64,000 nt of DNA from a candidate division WOR-3 bacterium (GCA_039802005.1 JBDRVV010000009.1:3549-67548), one strand, 5' to 3'. Positions 28,353 through 35,923 are shown, counted from the first letter of the stretch. Notes: generated by a model not told the origin, from the letters alone. A program made the numbers and translations.

Positions 28353-29705
28353 CTATTCTATCTTAACTACCTTGTGGGTACCTGCTTCCGGCAATCGAAT
28401 AAAATAGACACCTGAACGCAATTTTGAACAGTCAAAATAGCCGTTATCGGTGTGGGCAATATTCCTGCCACTGGCATCATATAGATATACAGTTTTTCCT
28501 GAAAATTCTGGGAGCACTATGTCTTTTTTGATAATGCTCGGTATCTTTATTTTTGATATCCCTTCTTGTTCTGTTTCTTCAACCCCAACAATTTCAATAT
28601 CAATATTGCCACGGATATCATACTGTGATGAAATATATTCACTCCAGACATTGAGATAACGATTATTGGCACCGGGAACGACATCAGCATAGTATATATT
28701 ATTTGTTGACGGTGAAATCCTAAACGCTGAACCAACCTGAAGACCGCTGGTATTGTATTTGACACCCCAAAGCTGATAGATACCGCCTACCTGGTACGAA
28801 TAGGTAACGAGATAATTTATCCCGTCAAACACAACGCGCGAAGACTTAAAATAATAAACCGGGGAAGCGATTGTAAATGGACTGCCAATAGGGGTACCCG
28901 TATTTGAAACTAACAGACCTTTCAAAGTGTATGGTGAACTCGTTTCATTCCAGATGACCATGAAATTAGCTCCACTGTATGCGACATCTACATTGTAGAT
29001 AGCTGCTGAAGCACTGGCTAATTGCAAGGTATCGCTCGCCATAGATCCATCTGGATTTACAAAACGTCCATAGACATGATAAGGTGCTGGAGTATAAACG
29101 CCCCAAACCACAAAATATCTCGTCCCGCCCCAGGTGACTGAAGGATAATAGTAGTATTGACTTGTGCCTATTGAAATTTGAATTCCTGTTGGGTCAAGAA
29201 CCGAACCACCGGGTGTAACCCGGGCGCCGTATATCTGATAAATATTGTTCCGATAGTCATGCCAGACTACAAAATAATTGCCACCCCCAAAAGTTATTTC
29301 TGGAGCATATTGAGCAGGTATAGGACCGTCATAATATATATAAAATGCTGAACCTAATGGGTCACAAGTCGGAGTGACACGCACTCCGCGGATATCACCA
29401 TAACTTCAACATCCTTCGCGCCAGACCACCAGAAAGTTTGTTCCATCATATGCTACTGCCGGTGTAAAGCAACTATCCTGAAATTGGAACTTTCCGTTTA
29501 AATCTATTACAGTACCGGTTGCCGAAACCCTTGCCCCGTATAAAGCGTACATATAGGAAGAAGAATTACGATAATCAGTCCAGAAGACATAATATTGATT
29601 GTTGGCAAAGGCAACACAGGGATATACCTCAATTGTATTAAGATTGGTTATAGCAAAATCCGCATTAAAGAGACTTAAGGTTAACATACCAATTATGCAA
29701 GCCAT
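28353..29705 (-). CDS. Secreted repeat (beta-propeller-like) protein with C-terminal sorting-type domain; predicted selenoprotein with Sec at TGA 29408-29406
   Basis: ORFs 29406-29705 and 28353-29384 are in frame across one TGA: VVWREGC*SYGDIRGVRV aligns without gaps to the next repeat VVWHDYRNNIYQIYGARV; AAGGAGG RBS. Confidence 0.78.
29370..29388 (-). promoter_or_regulatory. Candidate bacterial SECIS element
   Basis: CGGAGUG-CGUGU-CACUCCG hairpin starting 17 nt after the in-frame UGA. Confidence 0.65.
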
Positions 29706-29764
29706 AAGACCTCCTTTTAATTCTTTTGTTTCAAAACTCTTTCCGAGGTCATTTCTATGTTAAT

Positions 29765-29792
29765 ATTATATTCATAATTTGAGATTTGTCAA
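29765..29792 (-). promoter_or_regulatory. Sigma70-like promoter TTGACA-N16-TATAAT for the predicted selenoprotein operon
   Basis: Perfect hexamers read directly. Confidence 0.75.
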
Positions 29793-29840
29793 GGGGAAGG
29801 GGTTAGGTGCGAAATACCTTGAGATTTAGACATATTTATC

Positions 29841-29950
29841 CGCAGGCTAAAGCCTGCGACTACCAATTAATTCCATTTTTGTGTTTTGTAGTGGTCGAGC
29901 TTGCTCGACAATTTGCTATTTATTTTTGCGAGGCTAAAGCCTCGCCCTAC
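29841..29950. repeat. Cluster of three GTAG-type REP palindromes
   Basis: GTAGTCGCAGGCTTTAGCCTGCG (-, 29841-29863), GTAGTGGTCGAGCTTGCTCGAC (+, 29888-29909), GTAGGGCGAGGCTTTAGCCTCGC (-, 29928-29950). Confidence 0.8.
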
Positions 29951-29962
29951 ATTATTTATTCT

Positions 29963-32800
29963 CTAATCCATGATATCTTCTGGCAGAAGAAATAATTCTT
30001 CGGGCTCCAGCATTCCCCTACCTTCAATCAGGTCAATGAATTTCTGAGTTTCTTTTTTCAAGACAGGATAATCAGACTTCAAATACCGTCTTACAATTTC
30101 GGTCAGATGTTTTTTGTACTCGGTTGTCTTTTCCTTGTTATCCATTTTTGCGTATATCTTCGCCATTGTTTTTATCATTATGGCAATGTGTTGTTCATTT
30201 TTGGCCTTCTTCAGTTCTGCTTCTACCCTATCCAATGCGTACTTTCCAAGTTGTGCCATTCCTTCCATTGCAGCAATCTTTACAACATAAGAAGAATCGG
30301 TGAGCAGTTTTATTAAGATTGGGACACCGGTGGTATCTTTAATATTCTGCAATGCCTCAGCCACACGCAGTCTCATTCTTTCGTTCTTGTGTCTGTAGTA
30401 TTGATTAAAAATTGGAATCGCAAGGGTATCCTTCAATTTCCCGAGTGTATAGATCAAAACACCAGCAACCTTATCTTCGGGCTTTTTTTCAAGCATTAAT
30501 CTCAATGTATCCTTTGCCTTTGTGTATTCAAGTTGTCCAAATAGATATATGCAATTCCTCACAATTGTATCATTTTCATTATGCAGACCCTGGTATAAAT
30601 AAAAAGCAGCGGTATCCTTGAATGCCTTGAAAACTTCTTCAATCGCCCGCAGTTTGAGACCATCAAATGTCCGCATTTCGTTTTTAAAAATATATTCCAC
30701 TGCCCTTTCTTTGAATTCGTTTATCATGATTCTTCTGCCGGTCTTCGCTTTAGGAATATCCGCCCGGACCTCCCACAAAGAGCCATAATAAAAAAGCCTT
30801 GCCATCTTTGCCGAATCACTTTGCATTGTATCAATTTCGGGAAATGTAGTAATGGTATCTTCCCAGGGTTCTTTTTTGGGTTCCACTGCCTCAAGGTCCA
30901 TTCCTAAGGCATAAGTGCCGGAAGTCCAGATATGATTATTCTTGCCCTTGTCTTTCTCTGCATATCTATCTTCACCCTGCAAATCAATAAACAAACCTAT
31001 CCCACCAGTCCCCCGTGACCAGTTTGCACCACCCTGACTCATTCCTTCCCTTGAACAGTAGTCATCATTACCCCTGGTATCAACAAATATTCCAACAGAG
31101 TTTGTAAGACCTATCCCCTGTCCACCCGATGCATAATATACATCATCACCATCTTTATCTAAAAGCCAGCCAACTGCGACATCGTGTCCTTCACCCTGGG
31201 CAGGACCGAATCTACTAAAATAATGGTCATCACCTTCTAAGTCCACAAGTCCACCAATTGATAAATGAATCCCTGCACCCTGGGAATATTGTGCTGCAGA
31301 ATATAAATCATTTCCCTGTTCATCAAGTAGCATACCGAGTGCAAACCAGTATGAGGTTGCCTGCCCATAAACCTCAGAGATATATTTATCATTCCCAGAA
31401 CAATCATACAAAAATCCAATCCCACCTGATGCTACATCCCGCCAACCAAAACCAAACCCCTGAGCAAATGAACGAAACTGGTCAGGGTCTAAGGGCATAT
31501 GGAGATATTTCCCACCAGCATAATACAAATCATCACCCTCTCTATCATATAATAACCCATAGCCACAGGTACCGCCCATCCCCTGTGCCCAACAATATGA
31601 ATGATAAATGTCATCTTCTTTATAGTCAACTAAAATCCCTGAGCCAAAATTTCCAGCCCCCTGAACAAAGTAACCACCACGAAAATTATCAAAACCATCT
31701 TCGTCAATGAGTATACCGATTCCAAATAATCCTGCACCCTGACTGATATGGAATCCAGTATATGTATCATTCCCGGATATATCCCATAGTATCCCTGCAC
31801 CAAATAAACCAGCACCCTGATTGACAAGTTTGTTATAATTCCTATAGACATCATCTCCAGAAAGGTCAATGACAAAGCTCACTGGAGTATTCAATTCTCC
31901 AACCGCACCGGCACACCGACCAAGATATGTATCATTACCGCCCAGATCAATGATTACTGCAAAATCATTGTAGTAGATATTGTCATCAACACCACCAATA
32001 ACACCCTTAAATCCGCCGGGTAGTTCAAAGGTCTCGTAAACAAATCCCTTGACCCCGGATATCTCTTTGTAAGATAGATTTTCTTGCTTAGATAATTTTT
32101 CAGCAATCGCTTTTATCTTTTCAATTCCTTGGGCAAGAATGATACCAGCACAATGTATTTCACAAATATCTATCTTTTTGGCTAATTTTAATAATTGAAC
32201 AGTTTCAAGCGTGGTGACGGTGTCACGCTCAATTCCAAATTCTTTGTGTAAGGCACCTGCATATCCACGCTCAATAGAATCGGCCTCATCTGCCCAGAGT
32301 GATGGGGCGGTGTAGATTAGACTATCTTTTTGTTCGGGTGTGAGTTTGATAAATGCCTTATCAAGATGTTTTTTTGTGAGGGTATAAACCTCTTTTATTA
32401 AAGTAATAAAATCATCCGATTTAAGTTCTGCAAGGCTAACCTCTGGTTCTGAAAGAACCATCGGTTCTTGAAGAAAGCCTTGCCCTACATTGAATGTCCG
32501 TGATAAATTTTGCCCAATAATCTCTCCAGCACAAAATTTTATATAATCCGATGGGGTTTTTAAATTTTTTATTGTGTTTCCCGAATATAAAACATAATCA
32601 GGAACCGACATTGGTTTATCCATTAAATTTTTAACAACCGAAAGCCGAAAACTATCCTGTATCCAGTGTTTATCATATTCTAAGTCAATTTTTGAAAGAT
32701 TCAAGAGAGCCAAACCTTCAAAAATATATCTCCGCTCTACCTGCCATAAGGTATCAGGTTGTGGTAAGGGCAGGGTCAAAAATAAAATGAATGTGGCCAT
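29963..32800 (-). CDS. Large exported protein with repeated GxGxLxDxxGxDxY units and C-terminal HEAT repeats
   Basis: Signal-like N-terminus; many DxxGxDxY repeats; HEAT-like helices (VRLRVAEAL, VKIAAMEGM). Confidence 0.8.
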   Translation of the reverse strand: MATFILFLTLPLPQPDTLWQVERRYIFEGLALLNLSKIDLEYDKHWIQDSFRLSVVKNLMDKPMSVPDYVLYSGNTIKNLKTPSDYIKFCAGEIIGQNLSRTFNVGQGFLQEPMVLSEPEVSLAELKSDDFITLIKEVYTLTKKHLDKAFIKLTPEQKDSLIYTAPSLWADEADSIERGYAGALHKEFGIERDTVTTLETVQLLKLAKKIDICEIHCAGIILAQGIEKIKAIAEKLSKQENLSYKEISGVKGFVYETFELPGGFKGVIGGVDDNIYYNDFAVIIDLGGNDTYLGRCAGAVGELNTPVSFVIDLSGDDVYRNYNKLVNQGAGLFGAGILWDISGNDTYTGFHISQGAGLFGIGILIDEDGFDNFRGGYFVQGAGNFGSGILVDYKEDDIYHSYCWAQGMGGTCGYGLLYDREGDDLYYAGGKYLHMPLDPDQFRSFAQGFGFGWRDVASGGIGFLYDCSGNDKYISEVYGQATSYWFALGMLLDEQGNDLYSAAQYSQGAGIHLSIGGLVDLEGDDHYFSRFGPAQGEGHDVAVGWLLDKDGDDVYYASGGQGIGLTNSVGIFVDTRGNDDYCSREGMSQGGANWSRGTGGIGLFIDLQGEDRYAEKDKGKNNHIWTSGTYALGMDLEAVEPKKEPWEDTITTFPEIDTMQSDSAKMARLFYYGSLWEVRADIPKAKTGRRIMINEFKERAVEYIFKNEMRTFDGLKLRAIEEVFKAFKDTAAFYLYQGLHNENDTIVRNCIYLFGQLEYTKAKDTLRLMLEKKPEDKVAGVLIYTLGKLKDTLAIPIFNQYYRHKNERMRLRVAEALQNIKDTTGVPILIKLLTDSSYVVKIAAMEGMAQLGKYALDRVEAELKKAKNEQHIAIMIKTMAKIYAKMDNKEKTTEYKKHLTEIVRRYLKSDYPVLKKETQKFIDLIEGRGMLEPEELFLLPEDIMD
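32430..32488 (-). repeat. 59-bp REP-derived element, intragenic copy
   Basis: Identical to 33476-33534; encodes VGQGFLQEPMVLSEPEVSLA within the 945-aa ORF. Confidence 0.85.
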
Positions 32801-32823
32801 GTAACCCCCTTTAGAAAAAAATA

Positions 32824-32965
32824 CCTAAACGCCTAAATTCCTAAATACCTAAATTCAACATCCCTTCTTCACCCTTGTTTACCCTTCTTTTCCTTTTTTT
32901 ACCCTTTTTATCGCCTTCTGCCCTTTAGTCATCTTTCGCCTTTTTGACCTCTTTAGTCCTTTTTC
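32824..32965. repeat. Degenerate short-period tandem repeats (8-mer CCTAAATN, then 9-10-mer ACCCTTNTTT/GCCTTTTT units)
   Basis: Read directly in the intergenic region. Confidence 0.6.
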
Positions 32966-32981
32966 GCCATTTTTGGTGTTT

Positions 32982-33458
32982 TCATTTAAATGTCGCGATC
33001 CAGTCACCAATGAAATGTGTAATTACTATGACCACCACCGCAATCAATAAATGCTCACCAACAATAGACCAGGGATTTGTCTTTTGCTCCCTGCCCATCA
33101 TAAAACTGAAAAGGGAAATCAAAAACAATCCCCAGAGTACACTCACAATGATTGCTGTTGTAAGAGGGAAGATTAAAACCGGAACAAGGAATGTAAGGGC
33201 AAATAAGAATTTGGCAAAAAATGTCATTATCGTTGATTCCCATATCTCTTTTGTAGTATGTTTATTTTCGGACTCTTCAGAAATATGAATACCGAGGGCA
33301 TCAGAAAATGCATCGGCAATTGCAATTGTCAGGATACCACCAATAACCACAATTTTTGAATGGGTTCCTGAATGGAGTCCTACCATTAACCCAAGGGTTG
33401 TTATTATTCCTGATGTTGAGCCAAAACTAAATCCGGTTTTTAATGAATGTTTAAGCAT
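32982..33458 (-). CDS. VIT1/CCC1-family membrane protein
   Basis: FSFGSTSGIIT, IADAFSDALGIHISEESE; AAGGAG RBS before ATG 33458. Confidence 0.8.
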   Translation of the reverse strand: MLKHSLKTGFSFGSTSGIITTLGLMVGLHSGTHSKIVVIGGILTIAIADAFSDALGIHISEESENKHTTKEIWESTIMTFFAKFLFALTFLVPVLIFPLTTAIIVSVLWGLFLISLFSFMMGREQKTNPWSIVGEHLLIAVVVIVITHFIGDWIATFK

Positions 33459-33475
33459 AAATAGCTCCTTTGTTC

Positions 33476-33534
33476 GCAAGGCTAACCTCTGGTTCTGAAA
33501 GAACCATCGGTTCTTGAAGAAAGCCTTGCCCTAC
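33476..33534 (-). repeat. 59-bp REP-derived element, intergenic copy
   Basis: GTAGGGCAAGGCTT-[36 nt]-TAGCCTTGC, identical to 32430-32488. Confidence 0.85.
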
Positions 33535-33569
33535 GGAGAAAATTACTGGAGCCTTGTCCTACATCAATT

Positions 33570-34010
33570 TTATTCTTTCAATTCAGATGTGCAATTAGGG
33601 CAGCGCACTGCTTTTATGGGGATAGCCGTAAAACAAAATGGACATTCCTTGGTCGTCGGGGGTGGAGGTGCTTGGGGTTTAGGTGCAGTCCAGCGATTAA
33701 CCTGCTTAATCATTAAGAACAATGCAAAAGCAACGATTATAAAATTAATTACCGTGTTTAAAAACAGACCATAGTTTATTGTTGGCACACCCGCCTTTTT
33801 TGCTTCAGCAAGGCTCGCAAACGGTTGTCCAGAAAGATTGATGAATAAATTTGAGAAGTCTACTTTATTCAGCAGCAACCCTATAGGCGGCATAATGATA
33901 TCATTCACCAGCGAGTTTACAATCGCGCCAAAGGCACCGCCCATAATAAAACCGACGGCGAGGTCAATGACATTACCCCGCATTGCAAATTTTTTGAATT
34001 CAGAAAACAT
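33570..34010 (-). CDS. mscL: Large-conductance mechanosensitive channel
   Basis: [35 protein letters not shown]; C-terminal CPFC...CPNC extension. Confidence 0.96.
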
Positions 34011-34036
34011 AGAACCTCCTTGGAATTTAAACTACA

Positions 34037-34065
34037 AAAAGGGGAGGTATTATACCTCCCCTTTT
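34037..34065. terminator. Rho-independent terminator
   Basis: AAAAGGGGAGGTAT-T-ATACCTCCCCTTTT perfect hairpin downstream of the OmpA-like gene. Confidence 0.85.
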
Positions 34066-34084
34066 GTAAAATATGAGTGGATTA

Positions 34085-35923
34085 TTATTTAATTATCACA
34101 AATTCAACCCTGCGATTCTTTGCCATATTCTCAGGTGTAGTATTCGGCACAACCGGTTTGGATTCACCGTATCCCTTGGGAATTAAACGATTCGCATCCA
34201 GATTGTGATTGGTCACGAGATAATCTTTGACTGCGTTTGCCCTATCTTGAGATAGTTTAAGATTGTAACTATCAGAACCTCTGCTGTCGGTATGACCCTG
34301 AACTTCAATAGTTGTGGTTGCATTCCCTGCAAAGATCTTGGCAATTGTTTTCGCGGCATCGTCAAGGACTGGATACGATTCAGGTTTTATCTCGGACTTT
34401 GCCGTTTCAAAATAAATTTCTGGCAATACAATTTTGAATTCTTTCTTCACAAGTGCAATTTCCAGTTCTAATTTTTTGCCCGCTTCTATTGTAACCGTTC
34501 TCTCATAAGGTAGATAATTCTCATCGGTGACACTTGCTTTTATCGTATATGTGCCTGCCTTTAATGTCTTGGTCATTGAAGATGTCATTTCTTCTACAAC
34601 ATCACCGATAGTAACTTTTGCAACCATTGGTTGGCGGGTTGAGAGGTCAATCACATTAACTGTCAGTTCACCTTCTGTCGGTACCGGCCTCAATCTCAAA
34701 CTCAAAGGTATTTTTTCTCCGGCGCTGACCAGTAATTCAATTGACTCATCATAAAACCCATCAAGTGATGCGACAATGCGATAATTACCGGGTTCAAGTT
34801 CCTTTAATTCAAATTGACCAAAGGTATTTGAAGTAATGGATTTAACAAGAGAACCATCGCGGTAAAATGATATATTAGCAATAAGGGGTTCATCTGTCTT
34901 ATCATTAACAATGGTTCCGGCGATAGTAGCCAATTTGGGACCTTCTGGTTTGAAATCAACACAATAAGAAAATCCTGCAATCACTGCCCAGGGTGGTGCA
35001 ACACCCCAGCCGGTGGTAATATTTGTGCTGTCGGTCAATGCGGTTGGGAATGCGCGGTCATTTAATCCTTCCCAGGCGCGAATATCAACTGCAAGATTCA
35101 AACTGAATCTACCAGGTCGGAAACTGATACCAGGGGTATAATAGACCTCATTCGCGCCAAAGATTGCATCATCATCAATAAATGTAAAGAACTGGTCTTC
35201 ACCACAAAAATCAATTCCACCGACTTCAATAAACGGAGTAATTTTGCCGAGATCCCAGCTCAATGCCGCGCGATAAATAGTGTAATTATTGCGCCAGCCC
35301 ATTTCATCATCATTCTTATTTTTATCAATATAACCACCATTCAAATCAAGGGTCATCATTTTTGACTTAAAAGAAAGTCCCATCAATACACCGTAATCTA
35401 TGGCACCGCTCGAGAAATAACGAAAGACCCCACCATCATTGCCATAGGCTTCGCCGAAAATGGGATAGTTTTTCTGTTCAAGACTTGTCCCCCGATCTGA
35501 ACCGGTAGGCAATGATAAAACCGGTCCGATTGCCCAGGCAAAGTTTTCTTTACCAAGGCTCAGTTTCAAACCAAGCTTTGTATCACCCCAGCCCAAACTT
35601 GCCCGATTGTAATCGGTTGCGGTATAGTTAACACCGTCTCCATGTAATGAAGTCGCAATATTGAATGCCAGGTTATCGGTAATCGCATAACCAAGACCAA
35701 AAAACATATCACCACCTCCATGAACCGCTTCGCCTGCCGGTTCCCCGATAATTGCGACATCCCTTGTCTCTGTGAAATAGCGTGCGAACCAACCGATGTG
35801 AAAATGCCCGGCACCGCCATTCCAGGCAGACTCAGTACGAAACAGCCCGTATGCACCCTGATTATTAGAATAAGCAGTGCACAGAGCAATAACAACGAAT
35901 AGCGTTATAATGTTGCGTTTCAT
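34085..35923 (-). CDS. OmpA-family protein with N-terminal beta-barrel-like region and Ig/PEGA-like domains
   Basis: Signal peptide; C-terminal IYFE...IEVQGHTD.RG...YN..LS.DRA.AV..NRRVE. Confidence 0.88.
   Translation of the reverse strand: MKRNIITLFVVIALCTAYSNNQGAYGLFRTESAWNGGAGHFHIGWFARYFTETRDVAIIGEPAGEAVHGGGDMFFGLGYAITDNLAFNIATSLHGDGVNYTATDYNRASLGWGDTKLGLKLSLGKENFAWAIGPVLSLPTGSDRGTSLEQKNYPIFGEAYGNDGGVFRYFSSGAIDYGVLMGLSFKSKMMTLDLNGGYIDKNKNDDEMGWRNNYTIYRAALSWDLGKITPFIEVGGIDFCGEDQFFTFIDDDAIFGANEVYYTPGISFRPGRFSLNLAVDIRAWEGLNDRAFPTALTDSTNITTGWGVAPPWAVIAGFSYCVDFKPEGPKLATIAGTIVNDKTDEPLIANISFYRDGSLVKSITSNTFGQFELKELEPGNYRIVASLDGFYDESIELLVSAGEKIPLSLRLRPVPTEGELTVNVIDLSTRQPMVAKVTIGDVVEEMTSSMTKTLKAGTYTIKASVTDENYLPYERTVTIEAGKKLELEIALVKKEFKIVLPEIYFETAKSEIKPESYPVLDDAAKTIAKIFAGNATTTIEVQGHTDSRGSDSYNLKLSQDRANAVKDYLVTNHNLDANRLIPKGYGESKPVVPNTTPENMAKNRRVEFVIIK

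Follow-up and report, generated by a model that had tools for sequence, protein, structure and literature searches.

Introduction

Repetitive extragenic palindromic (REP) sequences with a GTAG head form families whose members differ in loop format, with long self-complementary loops of up to 27 bp (Di Nocera 2013, PMC3733652). Some of these REPs lie in frame within genes, as singles or dimers, and encode 8-30 amino acids (20-30 in the case of dimers) (PMC3733652). Units of REPs and a REP-associated tyrosine transposase (RAYT), an enzyme class defined by Nunvar 2010 (PMC2817692) and Ton-Hoang 2012 (PMC3333891), are referred to as REPtrons (PMC3733652). In systems of RAYTs and inverted REP doublets (REPINs), the repeats decay after RAYT loss (bioRxiv 10.1101/2021.07.10.451892). 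REPs are also targets of insertion sequences (ISs), namely IS1397/ISKpn1, ISPpu9/10 and IS621 (Tobes and Pareja 2006, PMC1525189), and Rickettsia palindromic elements (RPEs) are presented, as cited in PMC3733652, as in-frame insertions in protein-coding genes. Here we analyze a 59-nucleotide REP derivative, the 59-mer, that is found twice in a 64,000-nucleotide stretch of DNA (the window, contig C9:3549-67548) from a candidate division WOR-3 bacterium, once between genes and once in frame within the gene for a 945-amino-acid protein. The source genome (G000) is a 2.54-Mb metagenome-assembled genome (MAG) of 62 contigs with 37% GC. Its relatives include L068 (GCA_039802105.1), which is the closest of them, L066 (GCA_039802125.1) and the sister species G001.

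We propose, with a probability of roughly 0.7, that the 59-mer is an exchangeable long-loop allele of one REP type, REP-A, itself part of a RAYT system in this WOR-3 lineage.

The 59-mer is a REP with 36 additional loop bases

The following features of the window are needed for the description of the 59-mer:

32430-32488, minus strand: in-gene long-loop REP of 59 nt (site S5), an exact repeat read in frame
33476-33534, minus strand: intergenic long-loop REP of 59 nt, between the MscL stop codon and the VIT158 start codon
29963-32800, minus strand: open reading frame (ORF) of the 945-amino-acid HEAT / beta-helix protein (PF13646, HEAT_2)
29928-29950, minus strand: plain short-loop REP-A variant GTAGGGCGAGGCTTTAGCCTCGC, directly past the stop codon of the 945-amino-acid protein gene

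The two 59-mers are 100% identical across 59 nt and lie at a spacing of 1,046 nt. Read on the minus strand, both are GTAGGGCAAGGCT-T[TCTTCAAGAACCGATGGTTCTTTCAGAACCAGAGGT]T-AGCCTTGC, that is, a GTAG-headed REP (GTAGGGCAAGGCT..AGCCTTGC) with 36 extra bases in its loop, the plain short-loop REP-A being GTAGGGCAAGGCT-TT-AGCCTTGC. The initial annotation had described the pair as the local REP with 36 nt added, and this is borne out by clean 36-nt indels relative to paralogous or orthologous plain REPs at four independent loci. Chance would give 0.01 occurrences of the head motif GTAGGGCRAGGCT in the window, which has 4, and the plain GTAGGGCGAGGCTTTAGCCTCGC REP forms an inverted doublet with a GTAGTGGTCGAGC-type REP on the plus strand at about 29888-29909.

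Two overlapping palindromes had also been pointed out in the insert, AAGAACC-GAT-GGTTCTT and GGTTCT-TTC-AGAACC. Both are directly readable in the 36-mer, and the minimum-energy fold uses the second one, together with AACC/GGTT stacked upon the REP stem. The folded 59-mer is a 19-bp interrupted hairpin, composed of the 8-bp REP stem, a 9-nt 5' bulge, AACC/GGTT and the inner hairpin TGGTTCT-TTC-AGAACCA, with predicted energies of -16 kcal/mol as DNA (z = -6.8) and -25 kcal/mol as RNA (z = -4.5). In an alignment of 39 distinct copies, the outer stem GCAAGGCT/AGCCTTGC (8 bp) is paired in 91.7% of cells, with two-sided (compensatory) changes at five of the eight pairs. The inner helices are almost invariant in the same copies and show no compensatory pairs, so that covariation favours neither of the alternative hairpins. 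Of the six frames in which the 59-mer can be read, a single one has no stop codon. The ends of the 36-mer (CTTCAAG... and ...CCAGAGG) carry no terminal inverted repeats, and no convincing target duplication was found at the cassette ends, where the only flanking repeat is an ambiguous T/TT.

REP alleles in a HEAT repeat protein

The 945-amino-acid protein consists of an N-terminal helical region, central beta-helix-like repeats and C-terminal HEAT repeats. At S5, the 59-mer encodes residues 105-124 (VGQGFLQEPMVLSEPEVSLA) without breaking the frame, and the predicted junction peptide is GFLQEPMVLSEPEVSLAELK. The addition of peptide sequence to this protein, as proposed from the outset, agrees with the comparison to orthologs, since the 20-amino-acid segment is absent from all 34 of them (917-933 amino acids); the DNA of nine relatives has no REP at S5. 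Judged from sequence, the in-gene copy is a lineage-specific insertion.

Among proteins with at least 92% identity, three alleles are found at one codon. The plain-REP allele is present in proteins of 927 and 933 amino acids, which are exactly 12 amino acids shorter at the site, the 59-mer allele in proteins of 945 and 939 amino acids, and a REP-spacer-REP allele in a protein of 947 amino acids. The 939-amino-acid protein comes from another assembly, has the same insert and is 98.6% identical. The tandem allele is that of G001 (about 91.5% DNA identity), where the same codon holds REP-19 nt-REP, 66 nt in frame, encoding VGQGVSLADKTKIPVGQGFSLA; the spacer between its REPs occurs three times in G001, always at the HEAT/VIT locus. 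Because plain-REP and tandem-REP alleles are found in close relatives, the in-gene 59-mer is best described as a change of loop allele at a REP that was already resident in the gene.

An AlphaFold model of the 945-amino-acid protein has a mean predicted local distance difference test (pLDDT) score of 81.5. Residues 99-122 are modelled as coil (pLDDT below 50), and the helices on either side score above 90. The model fits a tolerated loop, with the proviso that low pLDDT is expected anyway for an insert that has no homologs in the alignment.

Two further observations concern the surroundings of this gene. G011 (L017) and protein P0002 have CTGGGGCAAGTA (LGQV / LEQV) at the position orthologous to S5, with 8 of 12 bases identical to the REP head, which may be what is left of a decayed REP, or else a microhomology that was there beforehand and guided insertion. 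Between the VIT stop codon and the start of the 945-amino-acid protein gene, the window contains a pyrimidine-rich low-complexity tract (32826-32960) with a period of about 10 nt (CCCTTCTTCACCCTTGTTTACCC...) and CCTAAATACCTAAA-type repeats; 14-mers related to this tract rank among the most frequent in G000.

The locus in sister genomes and the loss of a RAYT

The intergenic copy lies in a REP cluster with the following neighbours:

32982-33458, minus strand: gene for the 158-amino-acid VIT-family membrane protein VIT158 (PF01988), ATG at 33458, ribosome-binding site AAGGAG
33535-33562, minus strand: degenerate REP head with spacer (GTAGGACAAGGCTCCAGTAATTTTCTCC), adjoining the intergenic 59-mer on its 5' side
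33570-34010, minus strand: MscL gene (PF01741, E = 2e-43), upstream neighbour of the intergenic REP cluster

The intergenic 59-mer ends 17 nt upstream of the ATG of VIT158, whose orthologs in L066 and L068 are also called at 158 amino acids. The element at 33535-33562 aligns with an intact REP plus AGACAAAACCAAAATCTCC spacer in G001, and on this alignment is a remnant of a REP-spacer-REP array.

In G001, L066 and L068, the gene order is OmpA-like, MscL, S1, VIT290, RAYT, inverted REP-B, REP-A, S4, VIT158 and the HEAT gene with S5, where S1, S4 and S5 denote the REP sites after MscL, before VIT158 and in the HEAT gene, respectively. The alleles at the three sites are:

L068: S1 long, S4 long, S5 long, the three long copies being mutually identical
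L066: S1 short, S4 short, S5 short
G001: S1 long but diverged (5 differences), S4 short, S5 REP-spacer-REP
L067: S1 outside the contig, S4 short, S5 short

In each genome, the form of the in-gene S5 element matches that of the element about 1 kb upstream, just before VIT158. The S4 element of L068 differs from those of L066, G001 and L067 by a clean 36-nt loop indel.

L068 has two direct 59-mers, at S1 and S4, which flank VIT290 and an intact RAYT, and it is 1,663 bp longer here than G000. The two genomes are 99.9% identical through the S1 59-mer and 98.1% identical from the S4 59-mer on. The two corresponding BLAST alignments overlap exactly on window positions 33469-33539, and the 1,663 bp with VIT290 and the RAYT are missing in G000. 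The same extra segment is found in G001, and no other ortholog of the RAYT of this locus was identified in G000. On this comparison, the intergenic 59-mer is the single copy that remained after recombination between two direct 59-mers had deleted VIT290 and the RAYT.

The search for a RAYT that the initial annotation had suggested thus leads to a bona fide RAYT of 192 amino acids, flanked by the same REP type, at this very locus in sister genomes. The G001 protein (P0121) scores 95.9 bits against NF047646 (cut-off 80) and 28.6 bits against NF033573, the IS200 model (cut-off 55). P0121 and the L068 protein both keep the HUH and Tyr motifs (FMPDHLHILI and GYYEHV). RAYT orthologs in G005, G010, G002, G008 and G024 have direct REP-A arrays upstream and an inverted REP-B over the stop codon downstream. 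The RAYT is flanked by REPs in inverted orientation in six genomes, with one close ortholog per genome. A cognate RAYT flanked by REPs is present in G001, G005, G010, G002, G008, L066 and L068 and missing from G000. In G005, the RAYT is on the same contig as the HEAT ortholog, so its position is ancestral. Exact REP-A copies number 14-57 in genomes with the RAYT, 0-5 in genomes without it and 13 in G000. By analogy, this tracking of the RAYT by the REP-A count is the pattern described for REPIN-RAYT systems.

G000 contains two other RAYT-related genes. At C2:101080-101604, a 174-amino-acid homolog scores 86.6 bits against NF047646, has S-F-Y in place of HUH and QSFDA in place of GYYEH, and lacks flanking REPs; from its sequence it looks dead or domesticated. 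At C49:4606-5037, a 143-amino-acid RAYT-like gene scores below the cut-off (49.7 bits) and keeps the HUH and Tyr motifs; REPs of a type of its own, GTAGCGGTGCGATTTATCGCAC, flank it, so that it is a second REP-RAYT unit in G000.

The repeat family in the genome and in relatives

A search of G000 with the 59-mer, as had been proposed, reveals a dispersed family of 17 copies plus a diverged one, six of them identical. The flanks are unrelated across the genome, so that the repeat unit spans from GTAG to the 3' arm. GTAG-headed REPs amount to about 170 copies of at least six types in G000, where all major repeat families begin with GTAG and GTAGGGCAAGGCT occurs 24 times. REP-A itself is represented by 13 exact plain and 17-18 long copies on more than 25 contigs. 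Its loop lengths are bimodal, with either 2 nt (about 25 copies including variants, 13 exact) or 38 nt (17 copies). Matches with loops of other lengths (5-92 nt) lack the GTAG head and were discarded as chance arm matches. A GTAG or GTAA head is retained in 15 of the 17 long copies, 13 are intergenic, and about six are paired with an inverted REP-B 10-12 nt away (on C10, C14, C19, C22, C51 and C42). Neither window copy forms the inverted doublet of a REPIN, one being a singlet and the other part of a direct array. The initial annotation had considered recent mobility of a composite REP. What holds is that the family is dispersed and was recently active or homogenised; the pair in the window did not arise by two fresh transpositions.

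In-frame copies in intact genes are three in number, the HEAT protein gene and two genes with C-terminal sorting domains of the type IX secretion system (T9SS; PF18962), which encode proteins of 774 and 1172 amino acids. In the sorting domains, the long copies are located between the first two strands, with the 3' arm giving the SLA of '..VSLAIYDVTGR' and a predicted junction peptide ...EPEVSLAIYDVTGR. T9SS paralogs have a plain REP at the same spot, and the sole difference there is a clean 36-nt indel. A clean 36-nt loop indel is also seen in REPIN doublets with homologous flanks.

A fourth coding copy was noticed at C9:71352-71410, about 3.8 kb past the window end. It is the third long-loop REP on the contig, and its host gene is a T9SS C-terminal-domain paralog whose sorting domain it has broken, because the REP head has undergone a C-to-T change (GGGCAAGG to GGGTAAGG) and now contains an in-frame TAA. 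Another REP type (GTAGTGGCAGAGTTTACTCTGC) was found at C44:2824 of G000, within a 993-amino-acid open frame (..CSGRVYSA..). It is the only intragenic one among about 95 copies of other REP types, versus 5-6 of about 30 for REP-A.

Outside G000, a 26-nt core of the cassette is present, at 1-8 copies per genome, in 9 of 11 other genomes of the same genus. It also occurs in a single sister-genus genome, and a variant of it in one Stahlbacteria MAG of another family. A reversed-pattern control gave no match in any genome. Among about 185,000 species genomes, the core is confined to those few MAGs. None of 50 copies in 12 genomes has the 36-mer outside REP arms; a single extra match (on C11) was dismissed as a chance partial match within a gene. 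The stem background varies, with AAGGCT, with AGGGCT in G010 (where plain AGGGCT REPs are present), with GGGGCT in G030 and with a different REP (GTAGGGGCT/AGCCCC) in the Stahlbacteria MAG. Copies with at most three differences show 22 arm and 17 loop substitutions (13.9 and 25.1 expected, P = 0.006), an arm-loop contrast that is only suggestive, as the arm enrichment relative to the loop outside the inner hairpin has P = 0.12. A CRISPR repeat, for which 36 nt is a typical length, was ruled out, as there is no array and all copies are within REP arms.

The same REP arms carry a second, unrelated long-loop cassette, GTAGGGCAGGGCT[TTCCTGACCCGTTGTTTCCAACTACGGGT]AGCCCTGC, in G024 (C74:1894-2572; L059/L081) and G034, which suggests that long-loop alleles arise repeatedly in the REP-A family. 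Three of its four copies in G024 flank the RAYT of that genome.

Direct tandem arrays of plain REP-A with a period of 40-42 nt were seen at C17:41969-42071 of G000 and upstream of the RAYTs in L055 (G005) and L056 (G010), and gene callers take them as N-terminal extensions of the RAYT ORF (VGQGFSLA repeated). Positions 1-1394 of C19 in G014 (L013/L076) and 4392-5785 of C19 in G000 are 94.9% identical over 1.4 kb, after which similarity ends. The shared segment comprises a 59-mer, a REP-B and a DUF1722 / 2-thiouracil-desulfurase gene. The two genomes are assigned to different genera, and the segment reflects either horizontal transfer or a binning or assembly chimera.

Origin of the loop cassette and alternative explanations

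The gene tree has the topology ((G000, L068), (L066, (L067, G001))), with REP-less outgroups, and so indicates that a REP entered the HEAT gene in frame before the five closest genomes split. The long form of S1 is present in both clades and is probably ancestral, and S1 of L066 appears to have changed from long to short. Changes therefore appear bidirectional, and one-way insertion explains this less well than a swapping of alleles between REPs. In combination with the match to the nearest neighbour and the replacement of TG or TC loop bases, this bidirectionality favours non-reciprocal copying between REPs.

The ancestral locus contained, in order, MscL, a REP with a 59-mer, VIT290, the RAYT, an inverted REP-B, a REP with a second REP or 59-mer, VIT158 and the HEAT gene. 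In G000, everything from one direct 59-mer to the other is deleted, the RAYT included, and one 59-mer is left. The 36-nt cassette, predicted to extend the REP hairpin by an inner stem-loop, would spread to resident REPs, and sometimes be lost from them, by non-reciprocal copying from other REP copies, with the REP arms (13 + 8-10 nt) serving as homology. Copying might proceed by template switching at the hairpin during replication or by RAYT-mediated strand exchange, and nearby donor copies would seem to be preferred. Persistence within genes may be explained by the single stop-free frame, by length differences (36 and 42 nt) that are multiples of three, and by sites in surface loops.

Several observations weigh against this proposal. 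Parsimony on the gene tree needs one step for either direction of change at S4 and S5, be it short to long or long to short. Arm homology of 13 + 8-10 nt is short for classical RecA-mediated gene conversion. The cassette is near-invariant across genera and in several stem backgrounds while the arms vary and covary, a pattern that independent mobility or functional constraint of the cassette could equally explain. Among the genomes examined, long copies are most numerous in G000 (17), yet its cognate RAYT is gone. Finally, translation of the S5 insert is inferred from the open frame only.

These points lead to alternatives in which the cassette, rather than the REP, is the acting unit. The 36-mer might be a miniature mobile element that enters and leaves the single-stranded loop of the REP-A hairpin seamlessly, in a peel-and-paste reaction of a Y1 HUH enzyme (RAYT or IS200-like), so that the 59-mer is a REP with a passenger. 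Such an element would account for the precise presence or absence of 36 nt at four or more independent REP loci, for cassettes in several stem backgrounds that match plain REPs of the same genome as well as in the GTAGGGGCT/AGCCCC REP of the Stahlbacteria MAG, for the T or C beside the 3' arm, as in plain TT and TC loops, and for a core that is better conserved than the arms; the apparent reversion of S1 in L066 would suit seamless HUH-type excision. We nevertheless regard it as unlikely, because all copies of the 36-mer lie between REP arms, and because it is not bounded by terminal inverted repeats, does not have its own GTAG head and lacks an unambiguous target duplication. The two hairpins of the 36-mer have one arm in common and thus cannot mimic the separate left-end and right-end hairpins of IS200/IS605, and empty sites have TG or TC loops where the filled paralog has T..T, as if the loop had been replaced and not split. 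The local match of S4 and S5 in each genome suits copying from a neighbour, and the different long cassette in the same arms in G024 suggests that loop variation belongs to the REP family. The mini-element targeting REP loops that the initial annotation had offered as its second option is therefore not supported as a free-living unit. More speculative and decidedly improbable is the extension that the cassette is a self-standing unit of mobility, the smallest known, which a Y1 HUH enzyme pastes and excises at REP hairpin loops and which hops between REP families and genera as its carriers diverge. If true, a mobile 36-nt cassette would in passing create 12-amino-acid insertion/deletion alleles in proteins.

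Selection for a cis function is a very doubtful alternative to exchange between REP alleles. The 59-mer would then be a structured RNA (a regulator or stabiliser in the 5' untranslated region) or a protein-binding DNA site with the REP stem as clamp, and three AGAACC/GGTTCT half-sites at 9-nt spacing, the near-invariant core with its covarying outer stem, the strong predicted RNA fold (-25 kcal/mol, z = -4.5), the position of several copies 17-30 nt upstream of start codons and one U-G-compatible change in G030 are in keeping with it. An RNA element was rejected mainly on the random orientation of the copies relative to flanking genes (5 intergenic copies sense, 5 antisense, 2 convergent, 2 divergent), and in addition on copies within the coding regions of unrelated proteins. 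A scan of window positions 29500-34500 against Rfam 15, on both strands and with E up to 1, gave no match, so that together with the random orientation no strand-specific RNA role is indicated. The flanking genes have no common function, the inner helices do not covary, and presence at a given site is polymorphic among near-identical genomes. The 59-mer is thus probably a selfish or neutral DNA repeat without cellular function, and not a regulatory RNA. That one 59-mer or the intergenic junction is a mis-join or collapsed repeat of the MAG would be compatible with its 62 contigs, several of which end in REP-bearing repeats, and with a deletion junction that lies exactly within a repeat. We consider such an artefact extremely improbable. 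L068, an independent MAG, likewise has the two window copies 1,046 nt apart, which speaks against an assembly duplication; the 945-amino-acid frame is open, and the insert recurs in the 98.6% identical protein of another assembly. The 59-nt repeat is also shorter than a typical read pair, and its flanks are unique and collinear with three other genomes.

Comparison with known systems

With this locus, REP-RAYT biology reaches an uncultured hot-spring lineage (WOR-3 / Stahlbacteria). The locus provides an unusually clean natural series, in which genomes of 92-99% identity hold three REP alleles at a single codon of a conserved protein, and a concrete view of how REPs make protein length polymorphism, both in the HEAT protein and in T9SS sorting domains. 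It also offers a concrete route of RAYT loss, by recombination between two repeats of the family and excision of the gene. The short-loop and long-loop REPs are a tractable pair of substrates for RAYT cutting and joining. For annotation, 59-mers and REP arrays matter because they inflate ORFs (for example RAYT N-termini) and break MAG assemblies.

As in the described GTAG REP families and REPtrons (PMC2817692, PMC3333891, PMC3733652), the GTAG head is followed by a GC-rich stem of 7-8 bp, tens of copies are dispersed, several REP types coexist in a genome, and the RAYT is flanked by its own REPs in inverted orientation. Short-loop and long-loop variants with self-complementary inner loops coexist here too, and some copies are intragenic and in frame. 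The present family differs in its host, an uncultured WOR-3 / Stahlbacteria lineage, in the size of the cassette (36-38 nt, versus 27 bp for the longest inner loop in PMC3733652), in the conservation of this cassette across genera while the arms change, and in a cognate RAYT that was, by our reading, just deleted by recombination of two long-loop REPs.

REPIN-RAYT systems (Bertels and Rainey 2011, PMC3116915; bioRxiv 10.1101/2021.07.10.451892) are similar in their inverted REP doublets (here about 6 of 17 long copies, with REP-B), in the dominance of a master sequence and in a REP abundance that tracks a cognate single-copy RAYT. In contrast to them, the doublet arms are different REPs (A and B), the window copies are a singlet and part of a direct array, and decay after RAYT loss has not been seen so far, as 6 of 17 copies are still the master sequence. 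The ISs that target REPs (PMC1525189) are a precedent for the idea of loop targeting, in that the REP hairpin or loop is their specific insertion target, but they measure 1-1.5 kb and have a transposase, whereas the 36-mer carries no gene and lacks its own ends.

RPEs, in the form in which the GTAG REP literature cites them, share with the 59-mer the property of a palindromic selfish repeat that is tolerated in frame and adds a short peptide in surface-exposed regions. They are about 100-150 bp in size and are not known to be served by a RAYT. Their sequence is unrelated, and the inserts described here are 24, 60 or 66 nt alleles of one REP site.

Taken together, the literature already contains GTAG REP families in which short and long loops coexist, REPs that are read in frame, and REP-RAYT units. 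New in this case are a cassette of 36-38 nt that is conserved across genera, three alleles in series at a single codon, and a RAYT lost through recombination of two of its own repeats.

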